From Longirhabdus pacifica (GTDB lineage Bacteria; Bacillota; Bacilli; Paenibacillales; DSM-105158): 32,000 bases of DNA. The stretch covers positions 32,325 to 64,324 of the forward strand of contig NZ_QXJP01000022.1 in the NCBI RefSeq assembly GCF_004115085.1. Reading direction: 5' to 3'. The first letter of the stretch is position 1. Each line of letters starts with the position of its first letter. Position numbers and translations under genes: made by a program. Under the pieces are notes generated by a model that had not been told where the DNA came from, did not search any database, and was given only the letters and a program-made list of their open reading frames with translations. This document shows positions 855-26,910 of the stretch, in pieces.

Positions 855-874
855 GGATATAAAAGGAGTATGTG

Positions 875-1564: not shown

Positions 1565-1570
1565 CATTAA

Positions 1571-1601: not shown

Positions 1602-1629
1602 TATGATGAATCATTAGCTAGTCAAATCA

Positions 1630-2268: not shown

Positions 2269-2269
2269 T

Positions 2270-3334: not shown

Positions 3335-3515
3335 CTCTCCAATCCTTCCTGTACATACTGTATAGACTGAAATAAACGATTTCAATCTATTTGTTTATCC
3401 ATTAGTATTCATAATTTTTACTGAATGGATGAAGAAACGTGATACGTTATGCTATTTACTATGAAGCAAGCTAGCAAACGTACACCATTTCTCCATCTTG
3501 TTCTCATTGATAACG

Positions 3516-4616: not shown

Positions 4617-4717
4617 ACTTTATCCTCCAGACGTTAGTTAATAAGCTGTTATTGCTTTAGGCTATTCATGTTAAATGGATATTCCATTACATTGATATCA
4701 TCGTTACTGACATCACG

Positions 4718-5827
4718 TTAATATGTCTTGATTTTGCGGTACAGTGTATCTCTTTCAACAGGTTGTCGTCCTGTTTCTTTGATCATGTCGATGAACGTAG
4801 CAGCAGGAACCATATGTTTAGATTTGCTTCCAGCGGCATGAATGATTTGCTCTTCCATTACGGTTCCATCTAAATCATCTACACCAAAACTTAATGAAAC
4901 TTGTGCCATTTTAAGCCCAATCATCATCCAAAAAGCACGAATGTGAGGGAAATTATCCAACATAAGGCGTGCTACAGCAAGTAATTTCAAATCGTATACA
5001 CCCGTTGTATCTCTCGTTAACTTGTACTCTTCTGCTAGTTTTGTGTTAGCAGGATGAAAAGAGAATGGGAAGAAAGCTTGAAATCCATTCGTTTCATCTT
5101 GCAATTCTCGCAAACGAATAAAATGATCAATCACATGTTCAGGAGATTCGATGTGACCATATAAGATAGACGCATTCGATTTCATCCCCATGTCATGGGT
5201 AATACGATGAATTTGGAACCAACGATCAGAGTCTGTTTTATGGCCTGAAATAATTTTTCGAATTTCAGGATCAAAAATTTCCGCTCCTCCTCCGAGAATG
5301 GAACCAAGACCTGCCTCATGCAATCTGGTGATTGCATCTTCAATCGATAATTTAGCTACTCGAGCAATGTAATCGAGCTCAACAGCAGTAAAAGCTTGAA
5401 TGTGAATATGCGGTAAGTGCTTCTTAATGATTCGCATCATATCTTCATAATAGGAAAAAGGAAGTTTTGCATTCACACCACCTACAATGTGTATTTCAGC
5501 AAAGTCTTTCGAAACCATATCTTTTACTTTTTCCTCAATCTGTTCTAGTGACAAGGTGTATGCGTTAGGGTTATCCGCTTTTAATCCAAAAGCACATAAC
5601 TTACAATCTAAATAGCATACATTCGTATAATTGAGATGGGTATTAACGATAAAATATACATTATCCCCATGCATTTTTTGTCGAACCATGTCGGCCATTT
5701 GCCCGATTTCAAGTAGCTGATTCGACTTTAATAACGTTACACCGTCTTCAAATGTTAGGCGCTCCCCTTGGAGTACCTTTTGTTTAATTGAATCTAAAGA
5801 ACTTTTCGCAACATGGACACTCATCAT
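4718..5827 (-). CDS. Radical SAM enzyme of the MqnC/MqnE (CofH-like) family, futalosine menaquinone pathway; paralogue B
   Basis: CYLDCKLC cluster motif, GGGAEIF, YGHIES, LRELQDETNGF, ~369 aa. It aligns colinearly with paralogue A. Confidence 0.8.
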   Translation of the reverse strand: MMSVHVAKSSLDSIKQKVLQGERLTFEDGVTLLKSNQLLEIGQMADMVRQKMHGDNVYFIVNTHLNYTNVCYLDCKLCAFGLKADNPNAYTLSLEQIEEKVKDMVSKDFAEIHIVGGVNAKLPFSYYEDMMRIIKKHLPHIHIQAFTAVELDYIARVAKLSIEDAITRLHEAGLGSILGGGAEIFDPEIRKIISGHKTDSDRWFQIHRITHDMGMKSNASILYGHIESPEHVIDHFIRLRELQDETNGFQAFFPFSFHPANTKLAEEYKLTRDTTGVYDLKLLAVARLMLDNFPHIRAFWMMIGLKMAQVSLSFGVDDLDGTVMEEQIIHAAGSKSKHMVPAATFIDMIKETGRQPVERDTLYRKIKTY

Positions 5828-7385: not shown

Positions 7386-7515
7386 TATATTTCATTTACT
7401 TTCTATTCTTTACTATCTCATCTATAATTTATATTTATTACTATATATTTTTCCCTACCTACTATCAAATATCTACTTTTTTCTAACTACTCACAACTAC
7501 CTACTCATAACTACC
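7386..7515. other. 130-nt completely G-free (top strand) pyrimidine/A tract inside a ~570-bp ORF-free spacer
   Basis: Direct count finds no G between 7386 and 7515. The tract has many CTAC/TACT motifs. A 12-nt direct repeat ttctttactatc occurs at 7406-7417 and 7607-7618, and ttacgaagct occurs at 7549-7558 and 7578-7587. Confidence 0.7.
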
Positions 7516-7723
7516 GCTCATATTTGACTACGCTTACCTGCCTATCCATTACGAAGCTAACTTCCGTCAGCTCCCTTTTACGAAGCTCCCTGTAAACTAC
7601 CCTCTGTTCTTTACTATCCATTGGAATTATTGTTTTTTTCATTGAACTTTTTATGTTACATTATTTCATCTAGAACTTCATGTCCAGTATTTTATTACAT
7701 ATTGTGCTCATTTCAGGATTTTA

Positions 7724-7769
7724 TTGACTGGAAAAAAATTATGAGGTAGTATATTAGAACAAATGTTCT
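7724..7769 (+). promoter_or_regulatory. Sigma-A-type promoter with overlapping LexA (Cheo) box
   Basis: TTGACT (7724-7729), 17 nt, TAGTAT (7747-7752). It is followed by aGAACaaatGTTCt (7756-7769), a perfect GAAC-N4-GTTC core of the Bacillus LexA operator, 25 nt upstream of ORF 7794. Confidence 0.7.
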
Positions 7770-7793
7770 TATTTTGTTTGTAAACCATAAGGG

Positions 7794-8303
7794 GTGAAGT
7801 ATATTATAGTATTAAGTGAACTGTCGGAGTTAATAGCAAAGTTAGAGCGTTGCTTGCGAAAAAACCAACCTTTTGTATATGATGATGTGCATTTTAGTTT
7901 AGAAGATCGGGAACAAAGAATAAAGTGCATTACCTATATTTTAAAAGATGTAGATCAAGAAGTTTGCGGAAGTGAGTATCATCTTTGGGTAGAGAAGTTA
8001 TCGGATCTTATTTTATATGAAGAATTAACAGACCATCATCCATATAAATCGTTTTATGCTGAATATCCTGTATTAAGTAAGTGGCAAATCAGCTCTCGTA
8101 AAGATAGGGAATACAATATTGTATTAGCTTACAATATAGATATGAACAAGCAAAAATGCTGCGATCCTGTCAGGAGAAAACGAACAGCAAAAGAAGAGTG
8201 GGTTCGTGAGGTGAACGACCAGAAAAAACTAAGGGAACAAAATGCATACTATAAACAGCAATCACAAGATAGTGAAGTTGAAAGTTTTATCATTTATAGC
8301 TAA
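7794..8303 (+). CDS. Hypothetical 169-aa protein, first gene of the island, predicted SOS-controlled
   Basis: ORF with its own promoter/LexA box and its own terminator. No recognisable domain; the C-terminus is basic (..RRKRTAKEEW..). The start is uncertain because GTG 7794 overlaps the only SD-like AAGGGG. Confidence 0.55.
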   Translation: MKYIIVLSELSELIAKLERCLRKNQPFVYDDVHFSLEDREQRIKCITYILKDVDQEVCGSEYHLWVEKLSDLILYEELTDHHPYKSFYAEYPVLSKWQISSRKDREYNIVLAYNIDMNKQKCCDPVRRKRTAKEEWVREVNDQKKLREQNAYYKQQSQDSEVESFIIYS

Positions 8304-8333
8304 TTCCACGTCAACGAACGTGGAATTTTTTTA
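8302..8333 (+). terminator. Intrinsic terminator of ORF 7794..8303
   Basis: aattccacg (8302-8310) / cgtggaatt (8319-8327), a perfect 9-bp stem with an 8-nt loop, then a T-run. Confidence 0.8.
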
Positions 8334-8364
8334 TGATTCTAACCCATTGTATCCAAAAAAAGTA

Positions 8365-8421
8365 TTGACGAAAGAAACAAATGGAATTAAAATGAGAACA
8401 AATGTTCCGAACAAGTGTTCT
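8365..8421 (+). promoter_or_regulatory. Sigma-A-type promoter followed by two tandem LexA (Cheo) boxes
   Basis: TTGACG (8365-8370), 17 nt, TAAAAT (8388-8393). Then aGAACaaatGTTCc (8395-8408) and cGAACaagtGTTCt (8408-8421), back to back over the expected +1 region. Confidence 0.8.
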
Positions 8422-8492: not shown

Positions 8493-8876
8493 ATGACAAT
8501 TTTAAATGTAGATATGATGGAGAAAGCACAATTTTATGTTGCTAAATATGCGTTGGATAATGTTGATGGGGTAAAACGATTACTTGCCGACCGTTATATT
8601 ATAGATGAACGAAGGTTTAAAGGAGATACTGCTGCAAGCGATATTTTAATAGATTTGAGTCGTGCAATAGAAAAAGCAAATCTTAGTGAGAAGCAAGTCG
8701 AAGTCATTGCACTTATTTATGGGTACTGGCAATTAACACAGAGAGAAGCATCGGAAGTCATGGGAGTTTCACAGAAGCAAGTATGGAGATATGTACAAGC
8801 AGCAGTTGAGAAAATTGCCGATGTATTTGCAGAGTGGAAATACAATGAAATTGAAGTGTGGATGGAAGTCGAATAA
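8493..8876 (+). CDS. Sigma-70 region-4-like late-gene activator (PBSX Xpf / ArpU-like)
   Basis: The C-terminal ..LSEKQVEVIALIYGYWQLTQREASEVMGVSQKQVWRYVQAAVEKI.. is a typical sigma region 4 HTH. SD AGGAGA lies 6 nt before ATG 8493. The ORF-track start at 8415 lies inside the LexA boxes. Its position, immediately before the tail genes, matches xpf. Confidence 0.7.
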   Translation: MTILNVDMMEKAQFYVAKYALDNVDGVKRLLADRYIIDERRFKGDTAASDILIDLSRAIEKANLSEKQVEVIALIYGYWQLTQREASEVMGVSQKQVWRYVQAAVEKIADVFAEWKYNEIEVWMEVE

Positions 8877-9017
8877 AAAAAATAAAAAAAATTGCATTTA
8901 GGGGGTATAATTTTTGAAGTTCGTTACCTACTTATATGAACAATCAGAAACATCACCACAAGATGCTTTATTGTTCACTACACTGTAATGTCATCTACTT
9001 GGAATAGGTTATAGAAT

Positions 9018-9056
9018 AAAACGTCGTTGATCACAGATCATAACGGCGTTTTTTCT
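9018..9056 (+). terminator. Strong intrinsic terminator between the regulator gene and the structural operon
   Basis: aaaacgtcgtt..(gatc aca gatc inner pairing)..aacggcgtttttt. A long, nearly perfect hairpin followed by T6. Confidence 0.8.
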
Positions 9057-9178
9057 ATAGGAAGGAAAGGATTGGGAAGGGACAAGATGAAGACACATGA
9101 TCAAGACAAAGCTTTGGATGAACAAATGTCGGAACATTTTATTCATCCCTTGTAAGTTGAAAAAAGGAGGTGATGAAC

Positions 9179-9628
9179 ATGTCCATTGAAACTAACTTTG
9201 CAGCTATGGAACAATTTTTGCAGCAAACCCTTTCAGCCAATCATGTTGTAAGGCATGAGAAGCCGAGTGTGGTGGAGGACGGAACGTTTGTCATACGATT
9301 TATGGAAGACAAAAGAGAAATCCAATCCCCCTATCAAATGAAAAGTACAAAACAATTTGCTATCGATTACTACGAGCAAAACATGAACAACGTACTAAAG
9401 CAAATGGACATGTTAAGTGACGCCTTATATGAGGCAAAGAGCATCGCACTACCTAACGCTAAACCTGCGATGAGAGTCCAATCGTTCACTTACTCTATTC
9501 CAGAAGATAACGTTGACATACAGTGTACAGGGGTACTAGCTGTTACCGAAATGCTTCCTTTCCAACAAGGAACGTACAGCAAAATCAAAAATGTTTATGC
9601 AACATATCAAAACAATGAGGAGGAATAA
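9179..9628 (+). CDS. Hypothetical protein immediately upstream of the sheath gene (positional candidate for a tail terminator/completion protein)
   Basis: SD GGAGG (9166-9170) is 8 nt before ATG 9179. It is separated from the sheath gene by only 3 nt (stop 9628, sheath ATG 9632). I recognise no family. Confidence 0.6.
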   Translation: MSIETNFAAMEQFLQQTLSANHVVRHEKPSVVEDGTFVIRFMEDKREIQSPYQMKSTKQFAIDYYEQNMNNVLKQMDMLSDALYEAKSIALPNAKPAMRVQSFTYSIPEDNVDIQCTGVLAVTEMLPFQQGTYSKIKNVYATYQNNEEE

Positions 9629-9631
9629 AAC

Positions 9632-10651
9632 ATGGCAGGAGGATCTTGGGATTCAACAGCATTACCAAAGCGTCCAGGTTTATATTTAAATTTTGTAGAG
9701 GCTGCAACAGCACAAATTCAAGGAGGTGCTCGTGGCATTATCGCTATGCCGATCATGACTTCATCCGGAACAGCAGTAGCGAAAACAATGTACACCGTTT
9801 CCAAAGAAAGTGAAGCAGCAACATTATTCGGAGAAGGGAACATTCAATCCATCAAATTTGCATTACAAGGTGGTGCAAAAGAAGTACTCGCTTATGCTAT
9901 GGAAACTACGCCAGATTATGCTGCAATGCGTGATGAATTTGATAAGTACGAATTCAACGTATTCGTGTTTGACGGTACAGCAGATACAAGCGAGCAAGCA
10001 AGTGTAAAAACATGGATTGAAACAAACCGTTCCGAAGGGAAACACTTCATGGCTGTGCTCGGCCGCTCAGATGATAGCGCTGTTCCAGCAACAAAAGAAT
10101 TCGATGAGGATTATATCATTCATCTCATTAATGGTGTCAAAATTGAGGATGAAACGCATCATTCAGCAGCTTTTGCACCATATATTGCAGGACTTATTGC
10201 AGGTACAGCGATTAATAAATCGATTACGTACAACCAAGTATTTGTAGATGATGTCAATGTAAGATTCAAGCACAGTGACATCAAAACAGCACTAGGCAAC
10301 GGTGCCCTTGTACTTGTACATGACGGTGGAAGAGTGAAAATCGAACAAGGTATTTCATCTTCAACGAAAAAAATCCGTGCAATCAGAGCAAGACAAGCAG
10401 TTGCAACGGACATCACCAAAGCAGCAGCAGAAGCTTATATCGGTAAGTTGAATAATAATGAGGATGGTCAAAAAGCATTAATTGGTGTCATTAAAGCTTA
10501 TTTAGAAACGTTAGAGAATGCGAATGTGCTTTCTGACATTACAGTGGAATTAGATGCAAACCAAGTATCCGAGGGAGACTCTGTATTCCTAATTGTAGGG
10601 TATAAAGAAGTAGATTCCATGGAACGTATATTCTTAAACATTAATGTATAA
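9632..10651 (+). CDS. xkdK: Contractile tail sheath protein (XkdK-like)
   Basis: N-terminus MAGGSWDSTALPKRPGLYLNF.. and overall similarity to PBSX/SPP-type sheath proteins. SD AGGAGGA upstream. Followed by the tube gene. Confidence 0.9.
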   Translation: MAGGSWDSTALPKRPGLYLNFVEAATAQIQGGARGIIAMPIMTSSGTAVAKTMYTVSKESEAATLFGEGNIQSIKFALQGGAKEVLAYAMETTPDYAAMRDEFDKYEFNVFVFDGTADTSEQASVKTWIETNRSEGKHFMAVLGRSDDSAVPATKEFDEDYIIHLINGVKIEDETHHSAAFAPYIAGLIAGTAINKSITYNQVFVDDVNVRFKHSDIKTALGNGALVLVHDGGRVKIEQGISSSTKKIRAIRARQAVATDITKAAAEAYIGKLNNNEDGQKALIGVIKAYLETLENANVLSDITVELDANQVSEGDSVFLIVGYKEVDSMERIFLNINV

Positions 10652-10684
10652 ACAAAATAAAATTAACTGAGGAAGGTGATTGAT

Positions 10685-11122
10685 GTGGCATTAGATGCAT
10701 CACGTACAATTAACGGAACATTTGGAGAAGTTTGGTATGATGGAGAATGGTTAACAAATATAAAAAGTGCAGAAGCTGCTGTAGAGATAAACAAAGAAGA
10801 AATACAACGTGCTGGGACTCGTTGGGTAGCTCATAAGGTTACTAGTTTAACCGGCAGTGGTACAATGACCGGGTATAAGATTACTACAGAATTTATTGAG
10901 CGAATAGGACAAGTAGCAGATGATACAAAGGGGCCATTTGTAACAAGTATTATGATGAAGTTAGCTGATCCTGAATCATTTGGTGCATACCGTGTTCGTC
11001 TAAAAGGCGTTCAATTCGATAGTATTCCGCTAATGAACTATGAAGTTGGTTCAATAGTAGAGGAAGAGCTACCATTTACATTCACTGGATATGAATTAGA
11101 AGATAAGATACAAGCTCAATAA
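10685..11122 (+). CDS. xkdM: Tail tube protein (XkdM-like)
   Basis: (M)ALDASRTINGTFGEVWYDGEW..EELPFTFTGYEL is XkdM-like from end to end. SD GAGGAAGG ends 9 nt before GTG 10685. The ORF-track GTG at 10676 abuts the SD. Confidence 0.9.
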   Translation: MALDASRTINGTFGEVWYDGEWLTNIKSAEAAVEINKEEIQRAGTRWVAHKVTSLTGSGTMTGYKITTEFIERIGQVADDTKGPFVTSIMMKLADPESFGAYRVRLKGVQFDSIPLMNYEVGSIVEEELPFTFTGYELEDKIQAQ

Positions 11123-11133
11123 AGAGATTTTAG

Positions 11134-11171
11134 TAGCGGTTTATTTCCTTATTAGAAATAAACCGCTTTTT
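11134..11171 (+). terminator. Intrinsic terminator-like hairpin directly after the tube gene, inside the structural operon
   Basis: agcggtttatttc (11134-11146) / gaaataaaccgct (11154-11166), a perfect 13-bp stem with a 7-nt loop, followed by ttttt. Confidence 0.75.
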
Positions 11172-11233
11172 ACTTTTATTCATGCAAGTATTTCATAGCA
11201 TTATTCTATTTTATACATTGGAGGAAAAATAAA

Positions 11234-11626
11234 ATGAGTAACCAACGACAGGAAGAAATTTTAAATGCATTATTAGATACGGAAATCAAACCACAAAAAG
11301 AATTATATATGAAACGATTTGGTGTTAATTTCTCCATCGAAGCATTAGATGGAAAAACAATACATCGAATTCGTGAACAGGCAAGTTACCCAGTGAAGAA
11401 TGGAAAACAGCTTGATGAAGAGAAGTTTGGAGCATTAATCATTGAAAAATCTTGTAAACAACCAAATTGGTCTGATGATAAGCTAGTGAATGCCTTCGGC
11501 CCTACACCAGTTGATGTTATTCAAAAGCGTTTATTAGCAGGAGAAATCGCAAGATTAACAACCGAAATTTTAAATCTTTCTGGATTTGGTGATGAGGAAG
11601 AACAAATTGAAGAAATAAAAAACTAA
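11234..11626 (+). CDS. xkdN: Tail assembly chaperone (XkdN-like), zero-frame product
   Basis: Position between the tube and tape-measure genes, acidic C-terminus (GDEEEQIEEIKN), SD GGAGGAAAAA upstream. Confidence 0.8.
   Translation: MSNQRQEEILNALLDTEIKPQKELYMKRFGVNFSIEALDGKTIHRIREQASYPVKNGKQLDEEKFGALIIEKSCKQPNWSDDKLVNAFGPTPVDVIQKRLLAGEIARLTTEILNLSGFGDEEEQIEEIKN
11617..11623 (+). promoter_or_regulatory. Programmed -1 ribosomal frameshift slippery heptamer A_AAA_AAC
   Basis: Zero-frame codons ata aaa aac are followed by taa taa. The -1 frame opens exactly here and stays open for 63 codons, up to the tape-measure start. Confidence 0.7.
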
Positions 11627-11814
11627 TAAAGTCAGGTGGCATACCTTATTTAATGCATGAAATATTTCAAAGACAAGGGATACCACCTGACGAAATCTTC
11701 TCCAAACCTAGAATAGTCCAGCAATTTATGCTTTCTTCTATGATATTAGTACTTGAAGAAGAAGAGCGTGAAAGAAAGCGTACAACAAGGTTAAATCAGA
11801 AAGGAGGGAGATAG
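11623..11814 (+). CDS. -1 frame extension of the chaperone (G/GT-type fusion; missing from the ORF track)
   Basis: The -1 frame reads LIKSGGIPYLMHEIFQRQGIPPDEIFSKPRIVQQFMLSSMILVLEEEERERKRTTRLNQKGGR. Its stop TAG (11812-11814) directly abuts GTG 11815 of the tape measure gene. Confidence 0.65.
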   Translation, partial: LIKSGGIPYLMHEIFQRQGIPPDEIFSKPRIVQQFMLSSMILVLEEEERERKRTTRLNQKGGR

Positions 11815-13872
11815 GTGGATCAGGATTTAAGTAAGACGATAAAAAAAATAAATACTTTTTCAGACAGCTTAAAAGAAGCCCTAGATCGGCTAGATGCTTT
11901 TAATAAGTCTTTAAAAAAGATGAGTGAAGTTAGCAAAGTAGCAGCTAAAAAATTGAAAAAAACCACAAAAGAAACCAGAAAGTTAACGGACCAAACAAAT
12001 ATGCTAGCCGCATCTATGAAACAGACATCCTCTGCTTCAAGCAAACTTAAGAAGACAATGAAAACTATCCCTTCTATCTCAAATAAAGCGTGGAACATGA
12101 TGAATAAAACAAAGATCATCAAATCTTTCACAAAAACTGCAACTCATGGATTTCAGTCCTTCATAAATAAGACGAATCAAGCCAAAGGAAAACTAAGTGC
12201 TTTTTTTAATAAGATGAAGTACGCAGGATTAATAAAAAAGTCGTTTGGTAAACTGGGTTCAGTTTTCACATCTACATTCGGAGGATTGAAATCAGGTGCT
12301 GGAAAAGCATTTGGAGCAATGAAGTCTACATCCTCTAAAGCTTTTGCAGGAATGAAAAGCGGATTGTTAATGGTTGCTGATTTAGCTGTAAAAGCCGCAA
12401 CTGCTGTATTTAGTCTAGCTTCAACAGCTTTGAAATCGGCTGCAAAGCGGGAAACGCAAGTTATACCTATCCAAGCGGCTATACACGCAAAACTTGGTGG
12501 TGGTGAAGATGCAAAGGCAAAAGCTGCTCAATTAACATCAGACCTAGTTAACGAAATGAAAAAGAAGGCAGATGGTTCAAGGCTTTCCACAGATAATTTT
12601 CTTGCCTCTGCCAATTCGTTTACTCCTATAACAACGGATCAAAGTGAATTAAATCAATTAGTCGATTTTGCGAATAGAATGGATGCTGCTACTGGTAAAG
12701 GCATGTCATCTTTATCAGATGAACTAATGCAAGTCATGCAGGGTAATACGGATGCATTTGCACAAAAGTATGACATTGCTGATCAATTTGTAGGGTTTGA
12801 TCAACTACAAACAAACGCAGAAAAGATCCAACGACTAGATGAAATATTAGAAGGTATTGGTCATTCCACTTATGCGGTGGAGTTAATGGACAATAGTGCA
12901 ATGGGAGAATATTTGCAATTTACTACACGATTTAAAGAAGGTTTGGCTCAGGTTGGATTAATGGCCTTAGACAAACTAAAACCACTACTATCACTGATGA
13001 ATGAAATATTTAGTGCTGATAAAATGCAACCTTTCATTCAAATGGGAGGTAACTTATTTGCTGGTCTAATAGAGGGGGTAATGTATCTAATTCAGTTTAT
13101 ACAATTAAACTGGCCAAAGATTCAGCAATATTTTGCTAATGGTGTAGCGCTATTAACACCAGTATTTAATGCGTTTAAAGATGCTATGATTACCATCATT
13201 GAAGCCGTGAAACCGTATTGGGGCTCATTTATAGAAACTATACTCTCCGTTCAAACCGCAGTAAAGCCCGTTTTCACATTAATTGCTAGTTTAATTCGAG
13301 CGATTGGATCTGTGGTAGAAGCTGTAATGCCTACTGTTATGGATATTTTTAATACCGTTTTTCCTATGGCAGCGGACCTAGCAGGTACTTTGGCAGAAGG
13401 AATTAACTGGCTCGTGACTGAAATAGTTGAACCACTAATTCCTCTCATTGGAGATGTTATTAGCATAATGTGGGGAATAGTTGAGCCTATAATTGGTTCT
13501 CTCAAGTCTGCGTTTGACTTCCTTGCAGATAGTATTGGTAGTGTTGTAGGGAATGTAACGGACTTCTTTAAATCTGTAGGAGATGTTGGTGGAGAACTTA
13601 TTGGCAATGCTATTAATTTCGTTACAGGTGGAGATAGCGTGGATGGTTCTCATTCTAGCGGCCTTTCTTACGTTCCAAGAGATGGATATATTGCCCGTTT
13701 GCACAAAGGGGAAAGGGTATTAACATCTGAGGAAAATAAAGCTTACGGTAGCAATAGCATGCACATTGCTAAATTAGCGGATCAGATTGTTGTTAGAGAA
13801 GATGCAGATATTGATCGTATTGCTAGTGTTTTAGTTTCTAGAATGAGTGAAGCAGGCATGTCTTATGCTTAG
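11815..13872 (+). CDS. xkdO: Tail tape measure protein (XkdO-like, 685 aa)
   Basis: Lys/Ala/Ser-rich helical N-terminal half, hydrophobic Gly/Ala/Ile-rich central part, C-terminal ..LSYVPRDGYIARLHKGERVLT.. motif typical of tape measure proteins. Position after the chaperone. Confidence 0.85.
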   Translation: MDQDLSKTIKKINTFSDSLKEALDRLDAFNKSLKKMSEVSKVAAKKLKKTTKETRKLTDQTNMLAASMKQTSSASSKLKKTMKTIPSISNKAWNMMNKTKIIKSFTKTATHGFQSFINKTNQAKGKLSAFFNKMKYAGLIKKSFGKLGSVFTSTFGGLKSGAGKAFGAMKSTSSKAFAGMKSGLLMVADLAVKAATAVFSLASTALKSAAKRETQVIPIQAAIHAKLGGGEDAKAKAAQLTSDLVNEMKKKADGSRLSTDNFLASANSFTPITTDQSELNQLVDFANRMDAATGKGMSSLSDELMQVMQGNTDAFAQKYDIADQFVGFDQLQTNAEKIQRLDEILEGIGHSTYAVELMDNSAMGEYLQFTTRFKEGLAQVGLMALDKLKPLLSLMNEIFSADKMQPFIQMGGNLFAGLIEGVMYLIQFIQLNWPKIQQYFANGVALLTPVFNAFKDAMITIIEAVKPYWGSFIETILSVQTAVKPVFTLIASLIRAIGSVVEAVMPTVMDIFNTVFPMAADLAGTLAEGINWLVTEIVEPLIPLIGDVISIMWGIVEPIIGSLKSAFDFLADSIGSVVGNVTDFFKSVGDVGGELIGNAINFVTGGDSVDGSHSSGLSYVPRDGYIARLHKGERVLTSEENKAYGSNSMHIAKLADQIVVREDADIDRIASVLVSRMSEAGMSYA

Positions 13873-13883
13873 GAGGTGATAAA

Positions 13884-14525
13884 GTGCAATTTTGGTTAAG
13901 TTACAATAACGAAGCGGAAACTTTTCAACTTCCAGTGAATCCACAAAACATCAGCATATCTTCTGGTCATAACTTTAACGATGTACAAGTTTCCAAACTT
14001 GGTGAGTTTACCATCATCGGAGAAGAGCAACTCAAACAGTATGATTTCTCATCTTTTTTTCCAAAAGACTATCAGCCGATGTATTGTGAATATGATGGCT
14101 TTCCAGAACCTTGGCAGGCAGTAAAGAAAATAGAAGAGTGGCAAAAGTCAGGTAACCCCGTTAGCTTTAAAATTACAAGTCATGATGAAACCCAAAAAGT
14201 AAATACCGCAGCAACCATCCGCTCATTCAATTACGAAGAAAAAGCGGGTAGCCCTGGAGATATTTACTTTACGATTAGTTTGAAGGAATTTAAATTCCTA
14301 GAATTTCAAAAAGTAGAAGGTCCCGATGACTTGCAAAAAGTAAGACCAAATAACCAAGAGAAAGTAACAACTTACATTGTAAAAAGCGGAGATTCATTAT
14401 GGAAAATTGCGCAAAAAACATTGGGAAATGGAAGTGAGTGGCGCAAAATTTATGATGCAAACGTCGATGTCATCGGACCGAATGAAAACTTGATTTACCC
14501 GAAACAAAAGTTGGTGATTCCATAA
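13884..14525 (+). CDS. xkdP: LysM-domain tail protein (XkdP-like)
   Basis: C-terminal LysM: YIVKSGDSLWKIAQKTLGNGSEWRKIYDAN...LIYPKQKLVIP. SD GGAGGTG lies before GTG 13884. Confidence 0.85.
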   Translation: MQFWLSYNNEAETFQLPVNPQNISISSGHNFNDVQVSKLGEFTIIGEEQLKQYDFSSFFPKDYQPMYCEYDGFPEPWQAVKKIEEWQKSGNPVSFKITSHDETQKVNTAATIRSFNYEEKAGSPGDIYFTISLKEFKFLEFQKVEGPDDLQKVRPNNQEKVTTYIVKSGDSLWKIAQKTLGNGSEWRKIYDANVDVIGPNENLIYPKQKLVIP

Positions 14526-15520
14526 TGAATTTACAAATAGCATATAACGGAGACTTTTATATTGATCCTATCGTGACTTCTGTTACATGGTCGGGAGATA
14601 TTAAACAGGCATTCCGCAAACTAGAACTTAGTATTTCCAATACGGAAAATGGGGATAATCCTATCATTACGTTTGAAAAAGGGAAACCACTAGTCCTTTC
14701 AAAAGACGATAAAGAACTATTTCGCGGTGTTATTTTTTCTCATTCTATGGAATTAGATGGGACGATGAAACTAACGGCATACGATGAAAATATATATTTA
14801 ACAAAAAACATGGATACGAAAAAATTTGTCAACATGACAGCTTCTGAAATTATCGGGCAGCTATGTAGTGAGTATGATATTCTCGTTGGATCGATTCAAG
14901 ATACAGGCTATGTGCTGCCAAAATTAATTTTACGAGACAAAACATTATGGGATATGATGATTACCGCCTTAACGGAAACGAAGAAACAAACCGGAAGGCG
15001 CTTTTTTATTTATTCTGAACAAGGAAAACTATTTGTTAAAGAACGCAAAGAAAGAGTAGTAGAGTGGGTTTTACAAAACGGATTTAACATATTAGGCGCA
15101 TCCTATTCTGAATCTATCGAAGACTTACGCAATCAAGTGAAGGTATACAGTGGAGATATTAATAAGGGTCCCTACGATGAAGAGATTGAGCATGACGATC
15201 AGTCTATTGAAAAATATGGTTTAATGCAGCATTTGGAAACGGCAAGCAACGATCAAAAACAGTCTCAACTAAAACAATTAGCAAAACAGTTATTAAAAGA
15301 CTTGAACAAAGTGTCGGAAGAAGCAAGCATCGAAGCATTAGGTCACGATGGCGTTATTTCTGGAACATCCGTGGATGTCACCGAAGCCATGACAGGCATG
15401 AAAGGTGCTTACTATGTCGTAACAGATAGTCATACTTTCGAGAACAATATGCATCGCATGCAAGTGACATTATCTGAAAAAGAAGAGCTTCCTACACTAG
15501 AATATACAGAGCAAGAGTAG
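14525..15520 (+). CDS. xkdQ: Baseplate hub / late-control-D-like tail protein (XkdQ-like)
   Basis: TAATG overlap with the previous gene. Size and N-terminus (..VTSVTWSGDIKQAFRKLELSI..) resemble XkdQ/YqbQ. Confidence 0.8.
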   Translation: MNLQIAYNGDFYIDPIVTSVTWSGDIKQAFRKLELSISNTENGDNPIITFEKGKPLVLSKDDKELFRGVIFSHSMELDGTMKLTAYDENIYLTKNMDTKKFVNMTASEIIGQLCSEYDILVGSIQDTGYVLPKLILRDKTLWDMMITALTETKKQTGRRFFIYSEQGKLFVKERKERVVEWVLQNGFNILGASYSESIEDLRNQVKVYSGDINKGPYDEEIEHDDQSIEKYGLMQHLETASNDQKQSQLKQLAKQLLKDLNKVSEEASIEALGHDGVISGTSVDVTEAMTGMKGAYYVVTDSHTFENNMHRMQVTLSEKEELPTLEYTEQE

Positions 15521-15555
15521 CATTGTAGTTTTCACCTGCTTAGGAGGAGGTAAAA

Positions 15556-16026
15556 ATGAAAGTGAATGAAGAAAAGCCAGAAGGCGGCTCCTATAGCAAG
15601 CTCATACAAATGATGCAAACATTCGGCTATAACAAAGATGTAGATGTCGAATTAGCAACCGTACTGTCTGTTGAACCTCTGAAAATTAAAGTGGACAATA
15701 TGAACATTGAATTAGAGGGTACGGATTTAATTGTAGCGGAGCAATTGTTGGAACATAAACGTACGTTAAACATAAATCAGCAGCCTATGACGGTGCAAGC
15801 AGATGTATCCCAACATGATATTAGCGCCACCAGTTCATGTACTGCTGGGGGTTCTACTATCCCCAATAATAACGTTACGTTTACAACATTAGGCTTGGAT
15901 GCCGAAGTTTCAGGAGAAAATATCGAAGTGACGATCATGTCTAAACTTGAAGTTGGAGACCGTGTTATTGTCGCCTCGATACAAGATAATCAAATTTTTG
16001 TCGTATTAGATAAGGCGGTGATTTAA
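15556..16026 (+). CDS. xkdR: Baseplate spike/plug-like protein (XkdR-like, DUF2577)
   Basis: Order in the cluster and the ..ATVLSVEPLKIKVDNMNIELEG.. pattern of the DUF2577 family. SD AGGAGGAGG upstream. Confidence 0.7.
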   Translation: MKVNEEKPEGGSYSKLIQMMQTFGYNKDVDVELATVLSVEPLKIKVDNMNIELEGTDLIVAEQLLEHKRTLNINQQPMTVQADVSQHDISATSSCTAGGSTIPNNNVTFTTLGLDAEVSGENIEVTIMSKLEVGDRVIVASIQDNQIFVVLDKAVI

Positions 16027-16440
16027 TTGGCTTTAAGCCCAATACAACAAGCGCCAAATGTAGAGATAAAAGAGAGTAGAAAGCAAATAGCATCGTCAAA
16101 GACATACCATTTTAATTTTGATACAGGCGAAATGAAAGGATTTGTAGATAGTTTACAAGCGATCAAACAATATATTCGTAAAGCACTATGTACGCCTAGA
16201 TTTCGCTATTTAATATATGATGACCAATACGGAAGTGAATTGGAAGAACTTATCGGCAAAGACGTTTCTAATGAGTTCATTTTTGCCGAAATTCCTCGTC
16301 TCGTAAGAGAAGCACTCATTTACGATGATCGAATTACAGACGTTAAAGATGTAAAAGTAAAGCGACAAGACGATGCTATCTACGTATCGTTTCAAGTAGA
16401 AACTTACCTAGGTAGCATACAAGAGGAGGTGAAGTTGTAA
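16027..16440 (+). CDS. xkdS: Baseplate wedge protein, gp25/W-like (XkdS-like, DUF2634)
   Basis: TTG start directly after the previous stop. ..TPRFRYLIYDDQYGSELEELIGK.. is typical of DUF2634. Precedes the baseplate J gene. Confidence 0.75.
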   Translation: MALSPIQQAPNVEIKESRKQIASSKTYHFNFDTGEMKGFVDSLQAIKQYIRKALCTPRFRYLIYDDQYGSELEELIGKDVSNEFIFAEIPRLVREALIYDDRITDVKDVKVKRQDDAIYVSFQVETYLGSIQEEVKL

Positions 16441-17549
16441 TGGCATATGAGAACGTAACAAAAGATGTTATTTTAGAGCGTATGTTAGGACAAGTGCCAG
16501 ATGACATTGATAAGCGACAAGGGTCTATCACGCATGATCTCTTATCGCCAGCAGCGATTGAACTAGCACAAACTTACATTCACTTAGATCAAGTACTTCG
16601 TTTTGGCTTTGCTGATACGACTTACGGTGAATATCTGGATTTACGCTGTGCAGAAATGGGTTTAACACGAAAAGCGGTAACGGAAGCAGAAGGACAAGTC
16701 ACGTTTACCGGACCTGATGGAACCGTCATCCCTGTTGGAACACAAGTTTCCTCATCCCCACTCATCGACAGTGATACCCTATATTACGTGACAACGGAAG
16801 AAGGTAAGGTTTTAAATGGCAGTGCGGCCGTGAACATTAAAGCTGTTACTGGAGGTGCACAAGGTAATGTGGAAGCACATTTCATTACTACCGTGATAGG
16901 AGATTTAAGCAGCGTATTGAGTGTGACAAATGATAAACAGACCGAAGGCGGAACAGACGAAGAATCAGATAAAGAATTGCTCGACAGATATTTAGAACAT
17001 GTACAGCAGTCTGGTACGAGTGGCAACGCCAACCATTACTTGCAATGGGCAAAAGAAGTCCCGGGTATATCTGAAGCGTTGGTCAAACCGCTTGCCAATG
17101 GACCAGGTACTGTAAAAGTGATCATTCTAGGTGATGATAAAAAAGCACCTTCTACCGAAATAACGGAAGATGTGGACAAGCATATTGAAAAAGTACGTCC
17201 CATTGGAGCAGATGTTACCGTAGAAGCAGCAACAGAAATTCCAATTACTATATCCGTAAAAATAGAATGGTTAGATGGCTACAAAGGACAACGGACATTA
17301 GAACAGTTACAGCAAAAAATTACAGAAGATATTACGCAATATTTAGCTTCATTAGCTTTTGCTGATCCTATCGTACGCCGCTCACAAATAGGAAATGTCA
17401 TACTCGATTTAGAAGCAGTCAAAGACTACGATGAACTATATATTAATGGACAAGCAACAGGTAATGTAGAAATTGCTATCCAAGATGGACAAGTAGCCGT
17501 ACTGTCTGAAAACGGTGTGACCGTAACAGAGAAGGAGGGAAGTGCATGA
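16440..17549 (+). CDS. xkdT: Baseplate J-like protein (XkdT-like)
   Basis: TAATG overlap with the previous gene. ..GSITHDLLSPAAIELAQ.. and ..GGTDEESDKELLDRY.. are baseplate-J family features. 369 aa. Confidence 0.85.
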   Translation: MAYENVTKDVILERMLGQVPDDIDKRQGSITHDLLSPAAIELAQTYIHLDQVLRFGFADTTYGEYLDLRCAEMGLTRKAVTEAEGQVTFTGPDGTVIPVGTQVSSSPLIDSDTLYYVTTEEGKVLNGSAAVNIKAVTGGAQGNVEAHFITTVIGDLSSVLSVTNDKQTEGGTDEESDKELLDRYLEHVQQSGTSGNANHYLQWAKEVPGISEALVKPLANGPGTVKVIILGDDKKAPSTEITEDVDKHIEKVRPIGADVTVEAATEIPITISVKIEWLDGYKGQRTLEQLQQKITEDITQYLASLAFADPIVRRSQIGNVILDLEAVKDYDELYINGQATGNVEIAIQDGQVAVLSENGVTVTEKEGSA

Positions 17550-18136
17550 ACAACAAAAACACCACTTCTCTAGAAAAAGTGACCCAAGATATGTTGGACT
17601 ACTTGCCAAGTTACTATCAGGACAATCGTATCGTTAACAATGTCATGAAGTTAGAAGCAAGTGAAGTAAAAGCATTAAATGATGCAGTACAAGATGTACT
17701 GCATCAATTTTTTGTAGACAAAGCAACATGGGGCTTAGACAATTGGGAACGCATTTGTGGTATTACTCCAGATTACACTAAAACACATGAAGAGCGACGT
17801 GCTGTCGTGCGTTCAAAACTAAGGGGCATTGGTACTGTGAATATCGAGTTGATGAAAGAAGTGGCAGAATCTTATAACTACGGGGAAGTAGACGTAGAAG
17901 AATTACCTGCTCAATATCAGATTAACGTTAGATTTGTTGGGAAACTTGGTATTCCCTCTAACCTCGATGATATCAAACAATCGCTGCAAGAAATTATCCC
18001 AGCGCATTTGAACATTAGCTTTGAATTTACGTTCATCATTTGGAACGATATGGACGCTAACCAGTTTACATGGGATGAATTGGATGGTGAAAATATCATT
18101 TGGAGCGAATTTGAAGCTTACGAGGAGGCTTTATAA
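17546..18136 (+). CDS. xkdU: Baseplate/tail-fibre connector protein (XkdU-like, DUF2313), copy 1
   Basis: ATGA overlap with xkdT-like. ..MLDYLPSYYQDNRI..ATWGLDNWERICGI.. is the DUF2313 signature. Confidence 0.8.
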   Translation: MNNKNTTSLEKVTQDMLDYLPSYYQDNRIVNNVMKLEASEVKALNDAVQDVLHQFFVDKATWGLDNWERICGITPDYTKTHEERRAVVRSKLRGIGTVNIELMKEVAESYNYGEVDVEELPAQYQINVRFVGKLGIPSNLDDIKQSLQEIIPAHLNISFEFTFIIWNDMDANQFTWDELDGENIIWSEFEAYEEAL

Positions 18137-19749
18137 TGCCTGACTTAACGTCAAAATTAGGAATCAAAAAACCGCATGGGAATGAGTATGTGAAGCGGGA
18201 AATGTTTAATGAAAATTGGGATATTATTGATGAAAATAGCGCTTCCCAATCGCAGCTAGACACGCATGAAAGTGACACCACTGTTCACATCACACAGCAG
18301 GAAAGAGAGCAATGGAACGAAACAGAAGCAAATGCTAAAGCATACACCGACCAACTTAGCGATACAATGCACTTCCAACGTAACTGCCTCATACTAGGTA
18401 ATAACGACTGGACGTCACTAGTATATGACACAGATATGAGTAAAATTGCTTATGATCCAGAACAACAAGGGGGAATCGTGAAAGATGAAACCGCTGTTCT
18501 CATTCGCACACGTATACCTATTGATCCTGAAAGTACGTACTACGCTAGGGTAAAGGTGAAGAAGTTAAGTGGAAATGGTACGTTTTATTGTGGTGCTGCT
18601 TCATTAGATAGTGATTTTAATGCAATTATGAAAGATCAAGCAACTAATTATAATTATTTTGCAGCTTTAGCAGCTACACCACCTGTTAACAACACAATGA
18701 CCTATGAAGGCACAATCAAGGGATACAATATTGAGAATGAAGCTGATCACCATAAATTTGATCCCAATGCAGCCTATTTTGATGTTGTTATAGTCTGTAA
18801 TTACTTAAATGATGGTACTGGAACAGGACAAACTTTAATCGAATCGTTGGAAGTGTATAAAGCACCTAATACTTTATATGTAGGTGATGCAAGAGTACAA
18901 ACAAAGAAAACGATAGACTTTGTTGTAGAAGGCGATGCCAACACGTACTATCCCGTTGTGTTTGAGGGGGTAGAGTTTACTGAAAATACAAGAAAGCATC
19001 GATTAGATATTTATCGTTCATACGGTTGGCAGGCACCATCAAGTTGGTATCCTGATTCCACAAATCATTTTGCTGGATTAAATCTCATCATAGATCAAAT
19101 GTTAATAGGTTGGTCTGGTGCTTCGTATGAGATGGATGTTACGATCGGTCAAACTTTTGAAACAACGGTAGCTGACATTATATGCTCTAGACCTGATACC
19201 TCTGTAGTGATTGTTTGGATGCGAGGTGGAGGTGCGGCATATCAAATAAGCTCAACTTCACCAAACATAAAAGTGGAAATATATTACGATAAATATGAAC
19301 GAAATCCAAGAACAGATTTACCTGAGTATAATACAACTTATTATCCTAAAACTGAGGTTAATGATAGATTGAAAATATCTGAAGATGGAATATCGACAGG
19401 AATACTAACACGGTTTAATTCTTCTGCTAATCATTATATTGGAGGGGGAATTCGTGCACCGTTAAAAGGTAATAAAGTATTAACCCAAGCTGACATGGGC
19501 GAATGGGGATTCTCACCAAATAAAGACTTTCAATACTTTGGTAAAAATGCTTTAGCTGTCAAAGATTTAGCTGTGGAAGAAAAACTAGTAATTAACCAAA
19601 ACAATGATTTTTCCCATGGCGTTGAAGTTGAAGGAACCTTAACAAACAACGGAGACAAAGTGTTAACAGAAGGAACATTAAAAATAGATAGTGACGGTAA
19701 CCTAAAATTCTATAACGGACAAAACTGGAAAACCGTTCGCTACTATTAA
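18136..19749 (+). CDS. Tail fibre / receptor-binding protein 1 (XkdV-like N-terminus), 537 aa
   Basis: TAATG overlap with xkdU-like. The N-terminal ..REMFNENWDIIDEN.. anchor motif is shared with fibres 2 and 3. The C-terminal ..KVLTEGTLKIDSDGNLKFYNGQNW.. motif is also shared. Confidence 0.8.
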   Translation: MPDLTSKLGIKKPHGNEYVKREMFNENWDIIDENSASQSQLDTHESDTTVHITQQEREQWNETEANAKAYTDQLSDTMHFQRNCLILGNNDWTSLVYDTDMSKIAYDPEQQGGIVKDETAVLIRTRIPIDPESTYYARVKVKKLSGNGTFYCGAASLDSDFNAIMKDQATNYNYFAALAATPPVNNTMTYEGTIKGYNIENEADHHKFDPNAAYFDVVIVCNYLNDGTGTGQTLIESLEVYKAPNTLYVGDARVQTKKTIDFVVEGDANTYYPVVFEGVEFTENTRKHRLDIYRSYGWQAPSSWYPDSTNHFAGLNLIIDQMLIGWSGASYEMDVTIGQTFETTVADIICSRPDTSVVIVWMRGGGAAYQISSTSPNIKVEIYYDKYERNPRTDLPEYNTTYYPKTEVNDRLKISEDGISTGILTRFNSSANHYIGGGIRAPLKGNKVLTQADMGEWGFSPNKDFQYFGKNALAVKDLAVEEKLVINQNNDFSHGVEVEGTLTNNGDKVLTEGTLKIDSDGNLKFYNGQNWKTVRYY

Positions 19750-19802
19750 CATAGATAGTATGAAAAGAAACAACATTTGATCTACCTGCAACATACCAAT
19801 CA

Positions 19803-19870
19803 GCAAAAGATGTGGATGGGTAGCGACCTTTGCGGTTTATGCAAGAGGAGCACCCAGCCACATCTTTTGC
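19803..19870 (+). repeat. Structured intergenic repeat, copy 1
   Basis: Perfect 13-bp outer stem gcaaaagatgtgg / ccacatcttttgc, 5-bp inner stem tgggt / accca, conserved 29-nt core gcgacctttgcggtttatgcaagaggagc (19823-19851). Confidence 0.75.
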
Positions 19871-19882
19871 GTTTCAACTAGC

Positions 19883-19946
19883 AAAATACATGTATGCATC
19901 GCGACTTTTGTGAACTACGCAAGTGGAGCAAGCAGGCATATATTTT
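19883..19946 (+). repeat. Structured intergenic repeat, copy 2
   Basis: Stem aaaatacatgtatgc / gcaggcatatatttt (15 positions: 2 mismatches, 1 G-T). Core gcgacttttgtgaactacgcaagtggagc (19901-19929). It ends 5 nt before SD GGGAGG of the second xkdU. Confidence 0.7.
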
Positions 19947-19993
19947 ACCTCGGGAGGCTGAATACCATACTAACTCGAAAATATAAACAAGAA

Positions 19994-20545
19994 ATGCTAG
20001 ATTACTTGCCACGTTATTACCAAGATGCACGCATCCCACAAAACATCGTAAATTTAGAAGCTGAAGAAGTACAGCAACTAAATGATGCCGTACAAGATGT
20101 ACTGGATCAATTTTTTGTATCTACCGCCACATGGGGGTTAGAACACTGGGAGCGTATTTGTGACATCCCAACAGATAATTTTAAGCCCGTCCAAGAAAGA
20201 CGCTCTGTCATTGAATCCAAGCTAAGAGGGGTCGGTACCGTTAATGCTGATCTCATCAAGACAGTAGCTAAAGCATACGTCAATGGTGAAGTAGAAATTA
20301 CGGAAAATCAAAAGTTATACCAGATTAACATCACATTTGTGGGTCAGCGCGGCGTGCCATCTAACTTAGCAGACATACAAAATGCCATTAATGAAATCGT
20401 CCCAGCACACTTACAAACGACATTTACATTCACGTACTTACCGTGGAGTGAATTAGAAGGTTATAAAACAACCTATAACGATATAAAAGCCTATCAGTGG
20501 GGCGAATTACAAACTATGTTTCTAAATGATAGCAATTCAACATAG
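19994..20545 (+). CDS. xkdU: XkdU-like DUF2313 protein, copy 2 (paralogue of 17546..18136)
   Basis: MLDYLPRYYQDARI..ATWGLEHWERICDI.. is colinear with copy 1. The start is uncertain. ATG 19994 has no SD. SD GGGAGG (19952-19957) is 9 nt before an in-frame ATA (19967). The ORF-track GTG at 19910 lies inside repeat copy 2. Confidence 0.75.
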   Translation: MLDYLPRYYQDARIPQNIVNLEAEEVQQLNDAVQDVLDQFFVSTATWGLEHWERICDIPTDNFKPVQERRSVIESKLRGVGTVNADLIKTVAKAYVNGEVEITENQKLYQINITFVGQRGVPSNLADIQNAINEIVPAHLQTTFTFTYLPWSELEGYKTTYNDIKAYQWGELQTMFLNDSNST

Positions 20546-20577
20546 TTAAAACTCAACGATGCGATGCTTAACTGAAC

Positions 20578-20641
20578 AAAGAAAGTAAGTGAAAAGTGAC
20601 TTTTGCTATTTTTGCAAAAGAAGTGTTCACTCACTTTCTTT
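20578..20641 (+). repeat. Structured intergenic repeat, divergent copy (copy 4)
   Basis: 16-bp stem aaagaaagtaagtgaa / ttcactcactttcttt (1 mismatch). Core gtgacttttgctatttttgcaaaagaagtg aligns with the other cores and carries a perfect inner 7-bp hairpin cttttgc / gcaaaag. Confidence 0.6.
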
Positions 20642-20652
20642 ACGCCTACCTA

Positions 20653-20720
20653 GCAGAATATATGTCTGTGCCGCGACTTTTGTGACCTATGCAAGTGGAG
20701 CAAACAGACATATGTTTTGC
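20653..20720 (+). repeat. Structured intergenic repeat, copy 3
   Basis: 17-bp stem gcagaatatatgtctgt / acagacatatgttttgc (2 G-T pairs, no mismatch). Core gcgacttttgtgacctatgcaagtggagc (20673-20701) matches the copy 2 core at 27 of 29 positions. Confidence 0.75.
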
Positions 20721-20731
20721 CCCCTATGTTC

Positions 20732-20791
20732 CATCTCTACTATCGTTCTTTTTTAAGCGAATTAAGAGCGTACGATAGTAGAGATGTTTTT
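20732..20791 (+). terminator. Perfect 15-bp hairpin plus T-run just upstream of the fibre-2 RBS (terminator-like)
   Basis: catctctactatcgt (20732-20746) / acgatagtagagatg (20772-20786) with a 25-nt loop, followed by ttttta. The large loop makes its efficiency uncertain. Confidence 0.55.
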
Positions 20792-20833
20792 ATATACAGT
20801 AAAGTTGCAAGATGAAAGGAGAGGAAATAATAG

Positions 20834-23764: not shown

Positions 23765-23835
23765 AGTAATTAGTTGTAAACATCGGCGTTAGTTCTTATC
23801 TAATTTTAGTAATGTGAAAGGAGAGGAAATAATAG

Positions 23836-26607: not shown

Positions 26608-26910
26608 TTGGATTACAAAGATTCGGGGGAGGTGGACATCATAGATAGCCAATACAACATCATCGATTATTTTACACTGTATGGGCCGTTTGCGGTCCTT
26701 TTTGTTAGCTTATTTTTTTGGACGTTGAAAACATATAATACGAGAGAAGAATTGTATCGCAGTGAGATAGCAAACATTCGCAAAGAGTATGATATACAGT
26801 CCCAGCGACATCATGAGATATTAACCAAATTTGCAGAAAAATATGATATTGTTATAGATAAGTTGAACGCACTAGAAATAAAAATAGATACGAGTAAATA
26901 TGATGAATGA
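26608..26910 (+). CDS. bhlA: BhlA/UviB-family holin-like membrane protein
   Basis: Single N-terminal TM ..GPFAVLFVSLFFWTL.. followed by KTYNTREE and a charged coiled-coil tail, as in BhlA/UviB. The start is uncertain. TTG 26608 has no SD. SD GGAGG (26628-26632) precedes in-frame ATC 26638 and ATA 26641. Confidence 0.7.
   Translation: MDYKDSGEVDIIDSQYNIIDYFTLYGPFAVLFVSLFFWTLKTYNTREELYRSEIANIRKEYDIQSQRHHEILTKFAEKYDIVIDKLNALEIKIDTSKYDE

Follow-up and report, generated by a model that had tools for sequence, protein, structure and literature searches.

We analyzed a 32,000-nucleotide (nt) stretch of the Longirhabdus pacifica genome (assembly GCF_004115085.1, contig NZ_QXJP01000022.1, positions 32,325–64,324 of the forward strand), hereafter referred to as the window. 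It contains a PBSX-like contractile tail cluster at approximately 7.7–27 kb. The tail genes are preceded by two regulatory genes, one for a 169-aa protein of an uncharacterized phage family and one for a 127-aa protein resembling region 4 of sigma factors. Each of these genes has its own sigma-A-type promoter, and both promoters carry palindromes of the type bound by LexA, the repressor of the host SOS response to DNA damage. The regulatory region comprises the following features.

7724..7752, + strand: P1, sigma-A-type promoter TTGACT-17-TAGTAT, found by a consensus scan and predicted to drive the 169-aa partner gene
7756..7769, no strand: putative LexA (Cheo) box 1, AGAACAAATGTTCT, 3 nt past the -10 element of P1 and spanning the predicted transcription start
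7794..8303, + strand: partner gene, 169 aa, with a PHROG match to phrog_13088, an uncharacterized phage protein family
8302..8327, + strand: intrinsic terminator between the regulator genes, which makes them two independent transcription units
8365..8393, + strand: P2, sigma-A-type promoter TTGACG-17-TAAAAT, found by a consensus scan and predicted to drive the sigma-like gene
8395..8408, no strand: putative LexA box 2a, AGAACAAATGTTCC, 1 nt past the -10 element of P2
8408..8421, no strand: putative LexA box 2b, CGAACAAGTGTTCT, abutting box 2a
8493..8876, + strand: gene for the 127-aa sigma-region-4-only / DUF134 protein, a presumed late-gene activator (Pfam, NCBIfam and PHROG matches)

The exact GAAC-N4-GTTC palindromes within the three boxes occupy positions 7757–7768, 8396–8407 and 8409–8420. 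Boxes 2a and 2b have one base in common, and their centres are 13 bp apart. At both P1 and P2 the 14-mer boxes abut core promoter elements. The two promoters and three boxes had been proposed in a first-pass annotation of this DNA, and all their coordinates and sequences are as it described. The three boxes have one or two mismatches to the 14-mer consensus CGAAC-N4-GTTCG, located at the outer positions.

The exact core occurs four times in the window against 0.39 occurrences expected, an approximately 10-fold enrichment, and none of 100 shuffled sequences reached this count. The fourth core, GAACAGCGGTTC at position 25484, has a G+C-rich spacer (AGCG) and lies within the tail-fibre open reading frame (ORF) 23836–26565. 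The first-pass annotation had noticed no further intergenic copy, and there is none.

The region upstream of P1 includes a G-poor non-coding stretch of the + strand (7397–7640) rich in TACT/CTAC repeated units that form the direct repeats D1 and D2.

Candidate proteins acting at the boxes

LexA operators of Bacillus subtilis follow an RNRY spacer rule, and tandem boxes are found at dinC. Winterling and colleagues reportedly refined the B. subtilis LexA consensus in 1998 to CGAACRNRYGTTYC; we take this form to fit all promoter boxes considered here (spacers AAAT, AAGT and ATAC) and not the coding-region copy (AGCG). The motif GAAC-N4-GTTC, in its longer form CGAAC-N4-GTTCG, is the B. subtilis LexA operator and is common to B. 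thuringiensis and clostridia (PMC4551915; PMC4234289). The operator of the Clostridium difficile recA gene used in binding assays, AGAACAAATGTTTG (PMC4234289), differs from box 1 at two of the 14 positions and from box 2a also at two.

We searched for alternative regulators among the ORFs in or beside the element, including the small ORFs by the promoters and at the right end, and found no match to a helix-turn-helix (HTH), Xre, CI or S24 repressor in Pfam, PHROG or NCBIfam. Two small ORFs near P1, 6870–7220 (116 aa) and 7511–7642 (43 aa, on the minus strand and divergent from P1), have neither a family match nor a homologue in related loci. Six loci, described below and including the window, are classed as tail-only. 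Upstream of the boxed promoter each has something different (a tRNA cluster, an amidase, a Toast_rack protein or, on the opposite strand, a gene for an unknown protein), and no conserved neighbouring gene able to supply a repressor was found in the six loci. Because no repressor family was matched and the upstream genes differ among the tail-only loci, an element-encoded repressor is very unlikely.

Taken with the motif, these observations suggest that LexA probably represses P1 and P2 directly, and that firing and cell lysis are most likely timed by the host SOS response instead of a repressor of phage origin. The same two proposals had been made in the first-pass annotation, and the comparison supports both: neither an HTH/S24-type match in the window nor a conserved neighbour in the six loci points to a phage repressor, and perfect Firmicute cores, which overlap the predicted transcription starts and have the same offset from the promoter in all six tail-only loci, point to host LexA, rather than an Xre/CI repressor, as the gate.

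Related loci with and without the box

Approximately 70 related loci were examined. About 65 of them are of the phage type and were taken from 24 genomes of Paenibacillus, Cohnella, Brevibacillus and Neobacillus, phage Ley, the Logan contig L033, six metagenome contigs and 35 IMG/VR contigs; these collections overlap somewhat. The six tail-only loci are the window, the metagenomic Logan contig L001, Marinicrinis sediminis (L044), Chengkuizengella marina (L030), Chengkuizengella sp. SCS-71B (L031) and C. axinellae (L032/L035).

In the phage-type loci, the genes for terminase (TerL) and portal are situated a few kb downstream of the regulator pair, and no sheath gene is nearby. In the 800 bp preceding the sigma gene, none of these approximately 65 loci has a box associated with a promoter. 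Exact cores at -647 in L033 and -340 in L046 were considered as operators and dismissed as chance occurrences, both being inside a DNA methylase coding sequence and lacking a promoter.

In all six tail-only loci, a promoter of the form TTGACN-17-TAnnAT upstream of the sigma and partner genes is followed, 1 or 3 nt on, by an exact box (GGAACAAATGTTCG, AGAACAAATGTTCC or AGAACATACGTTCC). The geometry of box 1, 3 nt past the -10 element, is repeated in L001 and Marinicrinis, and the 14-mer of box 2a is identical to the box of two Chengkuizengella genomes. The second P2 box, 2b, was found in the window alone among the loci compared. In an alignment of seven promoters, only the -35 and -10 elements and the GAAC/GTTC arms are invariant, and the flanks cannot be aligned. 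The eight core positions are invariant in eight boxes from the six loci, while the spacers vary (AAAT, AAGT, ATAC). The promoter box of Marinicrinis is the sole exact core in 13.8 kb. In L035 and L044 the tail genes are directly adjoined by host genes or a tRNA cluster, with no capsid module.

The six tail-only loci form one clade in a neighbor-joining tree of the concatenated sigma and partner proteins (100 of 100 bootstraps), with the window as a sister to Chengkuizengella (92 of 100). Their sigma proteins are 48–62% identical, and the elements occupy different chromosomal contexts. Since the loci form a single clade, the box was most probably acquired once and then retained; the acquisition probably took place when a phage lineage turned into a tailocin, that is, a headless phage tail released as a weapon. 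Retention of the box over such divergence of the regulators is strong evidence of purifying selection, and hence of function. A Fisher test of the association between the box and tail-only status (p ~4e-7) was not relied on, as the six loci are monophyletic.

Two of the related loci have further features. C. marina (L030, 9342–12997) has an intact boxed operon of the sigma and partner genes but has lost the tail genes, with no more than a short BhlA-like ORF and a dCMP deaminase gene left nearby. The pair may be kept there for another purpose, or the element may have decayed recently. The tailocins of L001 (1–60) and Marinicrinis (L044, 200–930) come right after a tRNA cluster whose tRNA 3' end is the same in the two loci, and this cluster was probably where the ancestral element integrated. 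No tRNA lies near the element of the window, and Rfam and tRNA scans of the window yielded no matches.

The regulator pair, the candidate late promoter and the tail module

The 127-aa protein matches Sigma70_r4 and DUF134 at residues ~59–114 and belongs to a PHROG family named 'sigma factor'. No sigma region 2 was matched in Pfam or NCBIfam, which sets the protein apart from complete sigma-70 factors and from the TcdR/UviA-type (group 5) factors. Of its earlier description as a sigma-like activator, the sigma similarity holds; it is confined to region 4, and the protein forms a conserved pair with the 169-aa protein encoded behind P1, a connection that the first-pass annotation had not made.

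The partner has no match in Pfam or NCBIfam. A profile search found 487 representatives of its family at 50% identity clustering, with the conserved motifs DLILYEELTD, EYP..S.WQ and RRKRT. In hidden Markov model searches of the fetched loci, the sigma and partner genes were adjacent in 33 of 34 loci and in 33 of 35 IMG/VR contigs. Usually the sigma gene comes first and the partner second, and the genes mostly overlap. The inverted order, with a terminator and a second promoter between the genes, was found in the window alone among the loci compared. In the Paenibacillus larvae phage Ley the pair is annotated as 'RNA polymerase subunit sigma' and 'hypothetical protein'. In complete phage relatives, the pair is located just upstream of the packaging and late genes, and for this reason we presume that it activates late genes.

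An AF2 model of the partner initially had a pLDDT of 70, which rose to 92.8 with a 64-sequence alignment. The latter model has no structural neighbour in the PDB (Foldseek, E >= 1), and its matches in BFVD are uncharacterized phage proteins only. There is no PDB sequence match for the partner and no Pfam match for any of the 64 family members. The model suggests that the partner may represent a new fold for a common phage regulator. The possibility that it supplies the region 2 of a split sigma factor, as in SigO-RsoA, was considered and is not supported: there is no PDB or Pfam match and no sigma-2-like structural neighbour.

Downstream of the pair, the window contains a candidate late promoter, a structured leader and the tail genes. 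They are listed here with the corresponding late motifs of three relatives.

8872..8911, + strand: candidate late promoter, an A-tract followed by GGGGGTATAAT (8901–8911), proposed as a conserved motif
9018..9054, + strand: strong terminator-like hairpin with a T-run, in the leader of the tail operon
9170..26565, + strand: contractile tail structural operon (ORFs and family scans)
26608..26910, + strand: BhlA/UviB-like holin-type gene, the final gene of the element (family match)
L001, 1324–1357: late motif AGAGGGTATAAAT
Marinicrinis L044, 2214–2242: late motif CAGGGTATAAAA
C. axinellae L035, 9155–9184: late motif AGGGGTATATTT

Upstream of the tail operon, these four tail-only loci share an A-tract followed by an invariant GGGTATA heptamer and a -10-like end. 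The motif directly follows the regulator genes in the window, L001 and Marinicrinis, and in C. axinellae it follows the terminator of the upstream host gene. There is no -35 consensus at the candidate late promoter, and it would therefore suit dependence on an activator. No GGGTATA was found upstream of either regulator gene of the window; thus there is no sign of positive feedback of the kind known for SigN.

A leader of ~260 nt separates the candidate late promoter from the first tail gene and has a folding z-score of -2.9 over its whole length. The hairpin at 9018–9054 may act in attenuation or antitermination, or may terminate the P2 transcript of the sigma-like gene. Approximately 35 nt ahead of the first tail gene, positions 9120–9144 contain a degenerate copy of the tandem P2 operator, GAACAAATGTCG-GAACATTTTATTC. 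Its first 10 nt are the same as in the P2 operator, and GAAC recurs 12 nt on. This copy may bind LexA weakly or may be a relic.

These leader elements bear on the possibility that LexA binds the promoters and is insufficient, so that silencing or timing would need a second factor: a co-repressor like gp7 of phage GIL01, a trans-acting repressor of a resident prophage, or an attenuator in the leader. The terminator-like hairpin and the degenerate half-site copy would fit such a scheme, as would the two small ORFs beside P1. Precedents exist as well: gp7 of GIL01 stabilizes LexA on a second, weaker site (PMC4551915), and the Listeria monocin is reported to be co-regulated with a resident prophage (PMC6872733). 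On the other side, the small ORFs are without family matches and homologues in related loci, the boxed promoter of L001 and Marinicrinis comes right after the tRNA cluster with no space for a regulator gene, and the boxes of the window are all complete palindromes, unlike the GIL01 half-site that requires gp7. We regard a necessary second factor as unlikely, and direct repression by LexA remains the preferred explanation.

The tail operon encodes a weakly matched tail-terminator-like protein, sheath, tube, an XkdN-type chaperone, a 685-aa tape measure, a LysM protein, baseplate proteins, two paralogous adaptors and three fibres. ORF and family scans of the window detected no capsid, portal, terminase, packaging, replication or integrase genes. 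The element thus has a complete contractile tail module and none of the head, replication and integration genes sought. Because its content is tail-only and no HTH repressor was detected, the element is, on its predicted gene content, a domesticated R-type (contractile) tailocin.

The tail genes also include a duplicated receptor-binding module (17546–26565). The adaptor paralogues (17546–18136 and 19910–20545) are 52% identical, and the two large fibres (20834–23764 and 23836–26565) are 43% identical over ~750 aa and differ in their C-terminal parts. The third fibre (18136–19749) has a 210-aa domain in common with the C-terminal part of the 976-aa fibre. Such diversification suggests several target specificities.

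A hairpin after the BhlA-type holin gene closes the element (26608–27050). The G+C content is equal inside the element and in its flanks, indicating full amelioration. The host genes to the left encode futalosine-pathway radical-SAM enzymes, NDH-2 and a HesB-type protein, and those to the right encode a hydrolase, NDH-2 and an ECF sigma factor. The left flank (81–5827) includes two MqnE/MqnC-like radical-SAM proteins and the C-terminal part of an SCO4490-type decarboxylase, which correspond to the futalosine route of menaquinone synthesis, unusual for Bacillales.

A proposed SOS-controlled switch and its known counterparts

We propose the following mechanism. LexA dimers on the GAAC-N4-GTTC operators, one at P1 and two abutting at P2, would occlude the transcription start. 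Upon DNA damage, activated RecA would promote self-cleavage of LexA and both regulator genes would be derepressed. The two proteins would accumulate and jointly switch on the -35-less promoter (A-tract and GGGTATAAT, 8872–8911), which would drive the 17-kb tail operon and the BhlA-type holin gene, and lysis would free the particles. Because both proteins would be required and P2 has a double operator, the two separately repressed genes could act as an AND gate with a higher SOS threshold. A strong or prolonged signal would then be needed, and lethal production would be confined to a subpopulation.

Several points weigh against this scheme. The late promoter is a candidate identified solely by its position and conservation, and the pair is presumably an activator on these same two grounds. 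The LexA motif was taken from an order-wide consensus, and the operators of the host's own lexA, recA and uvrBA genes may differ from it. The six tail-only loci share one ancestor and represent one event with subsequent retention, not six independent acquisitions. The 14-mer CGAACN4GTTCG with at most two mismatches occurs five times in the window against 6.4 expected, which is not above chance, and the boxes depart from CGAAC...GTTCG at their outer positions, where position 1 is A or G and position 14 is T or C. The signal comes from cores that are perfect, cluster on two promoters and are conserved in relatives, not from the relaxed 14-mer count.

The departure of the outer bases from the B. 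subtilis consensus would also be expected if the palindromes were operators of another regulator or resembled Cheo boxes by coincidence, and short AT-rich palindromes are a common type of operator. We consider this explanation highly improbable, given the invariance of the eight core positions among varying spacers, the enrichment of the exact core on just these promoters, apart from the fibre-gene copy, and the lack of a candidate regulator gene conserved nearby.

A further point against the scheme concerns the output: no endolysin gene was found in the window, so that full functionality of the element is uncertain. The Chengkuizengella relatives have a gene for an Amidase_3-SLH lysin after the holin gene. 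This difference, together with the loss of tail genes in C. marina, which keeps its boxed pair, could mean that the element is what remains of a decaying prophage and has ceased to be expressed as a functional tailocin, and that the boxes are relics. Against such decay, the ~20 tail ORFs are all long and intact, two of the fibres having 976 and 909 aa, and the promoters and boxes, which neutral decay would erode first, are perfect. The ameliorated base composition and the duplicated and diversified fibre cassettes suggest ongoing selection. We therefore give little credence to decay, and continue to favor a working tailocin under LexA control.

We tentatively suggest a more general view, in which the sigma4-only protein and its partner form a previously undescribed two-protein late switch, widespread in phages of Paenibacillaceae and Bacillaceae. 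Its placement behind a LexA-operated housekeeping promoter could have been the single ancestral step from a phage to a host-controlled tailocin lineage, with the wiring kept across several genera; the two LexA-gated genes of the window, with an AND gate and a double operator, would be an elaboration of it.

Regulation of tailocins in Gram-positive bacteria is little understood, and the well-studied tailocins (pyocins, monocin, rhizoviticin and PBSX) keep a phage-type repressor. The clade of tail-only elements described here appears to have shed its phage-type immunity module, with the late activator now controlled directly by the SOS repressor of the host, which would be a simple route from a prophage to a host-owned weapon. 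The analysis also draws attention to a pair of phage regulators that is very common and uncharacterized, and for which a candidate target promoter has been defined. The single and double operators could serve as a natural system for relating LexA-site strength to the fraction of self-sacrificing cells. Two small genes spanning ~1.2 kb make up this compact switch, which could be engineered to drive the production of tailocins.

The tail module is homologous to that of PBSX of B. subtilis, with an XkdN-type chaperone, a LysM XkdP-like protein and Baseplate_J. PBSX and other tailocins are SOS-inducible and coupled to lysis, and we propose the same for the window element. PBSX packages DNA and uses an Xre repressor with Xpf. 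Unlike pyocins, rhizoviticin, monocin and PBSX, the window element has no detected repressor of its own and has putative host LexA sites in its stead. The R-pyocins use the PrtR repressor of the PrtR/PrtN system (PMC12066065), rhizoviticin a LexA-like CI repressor (PMC10811719), and monocin a CI-like repressor with an antirepressor (PMC6872733 and PMC9043618). The report on the Brevibacillus laterosporus tailocin (PTLB) does not address regulation. We found no report of a tailocin directly under host LexA boxes in the literature, our coverage of which was incomplete.

Regulatory analogues also exist among systems other than tailocins. The B. thuringiensis tectivirus GIL01, in which host LexA maintains lysogeny (PMC4551915; also PMC6182141), resembles the circuit proposed for the window in having no dedicated CI-type repressor, an operator of the CGAAC-N4-GTTCG type, host LexA on adjacent sites (dinBox1 and dinBox1b) just downstream of the P1 start, and a lytic programme triggered by SOS (PMC4551915). 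In contrast to the window, GIL01 is a replicating phage that combines a full site with a half-site and needs gp7 and gp1, and its late activator gp6 is a LexA homologue. The window has a headless tail cluster, full palindromes, and a sigma4-like putative activator with a partner. No gp7-like gene was recognizable by family match or conservation among the small ORFs near the window promoters; the gp7 sequence itself was not compared.

SigN (ZpdN) of the B. subtilis plasmid pBS32 is similar to our proposal in that an element-borne sigma-type regulator is transcribed from a SigA-dependent, LexA-repressed promoter and DNA damage leads to cell death (PMC6751061). However, SigN corresponds to a complete sigma factor, possesses a promoter for positive feedback, and has a lethal output that is apparently independent of the prophage. 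The window protein has region 4 only, is accompanied by a second boxed gene, has no autoregulatory promoter that we could find, and would have the tail operon as its output.

The locus uviA/uviB/bcn of the Clostridium perfringens plasmids pIP404 and pBCNF5603 encodes a UV/SOS-inducible bacteriocin, together with a dedicated activator of the sigma type and a BhlA/UviB-like membrane protein, and has a putative LexA site (PMC4459074; PMC10467148). The first-pass annotation had drawn this parallel, and it is apt in function, the BhlA/UviB-like holin being real. It does not extend to homology of the regulators: UviA is a TcdR-family sigma factor with regions 2 and 4, whereas the window protein has no detectable region 2 and has a partner that looks obligate. 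The outputs differ too, BCN5 being a soluble protein and that predicted for the window a tail particle.

Colicin operons of Enterobacteriaceae have tandem or overlapping SOS boxes, and their double operator just past the -10 element resembles that of P2. In these operons, as proposed for the window, production of a bacteriocin is under direct LexA repression, and the producing cell dies upon its release. There, however, LexA acts on the toxin gene itself and not on activators one step up, the operator is CTGT-N8-ACAG in place of GAAC-N4-GTTC, and the weapon of the window is a phage tail. The strength of the LexA site at colicin promoters sets the fraction of lysing cells (bioRxiv 10.64898/2026.09.21.753294). 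Direct LexA control of a lysis-released weapon or a mobile element is thus already known from colicins, GIL01, SigN and uviA, and the tailocin version proposed here would be a variant of this control rather than a new principle.

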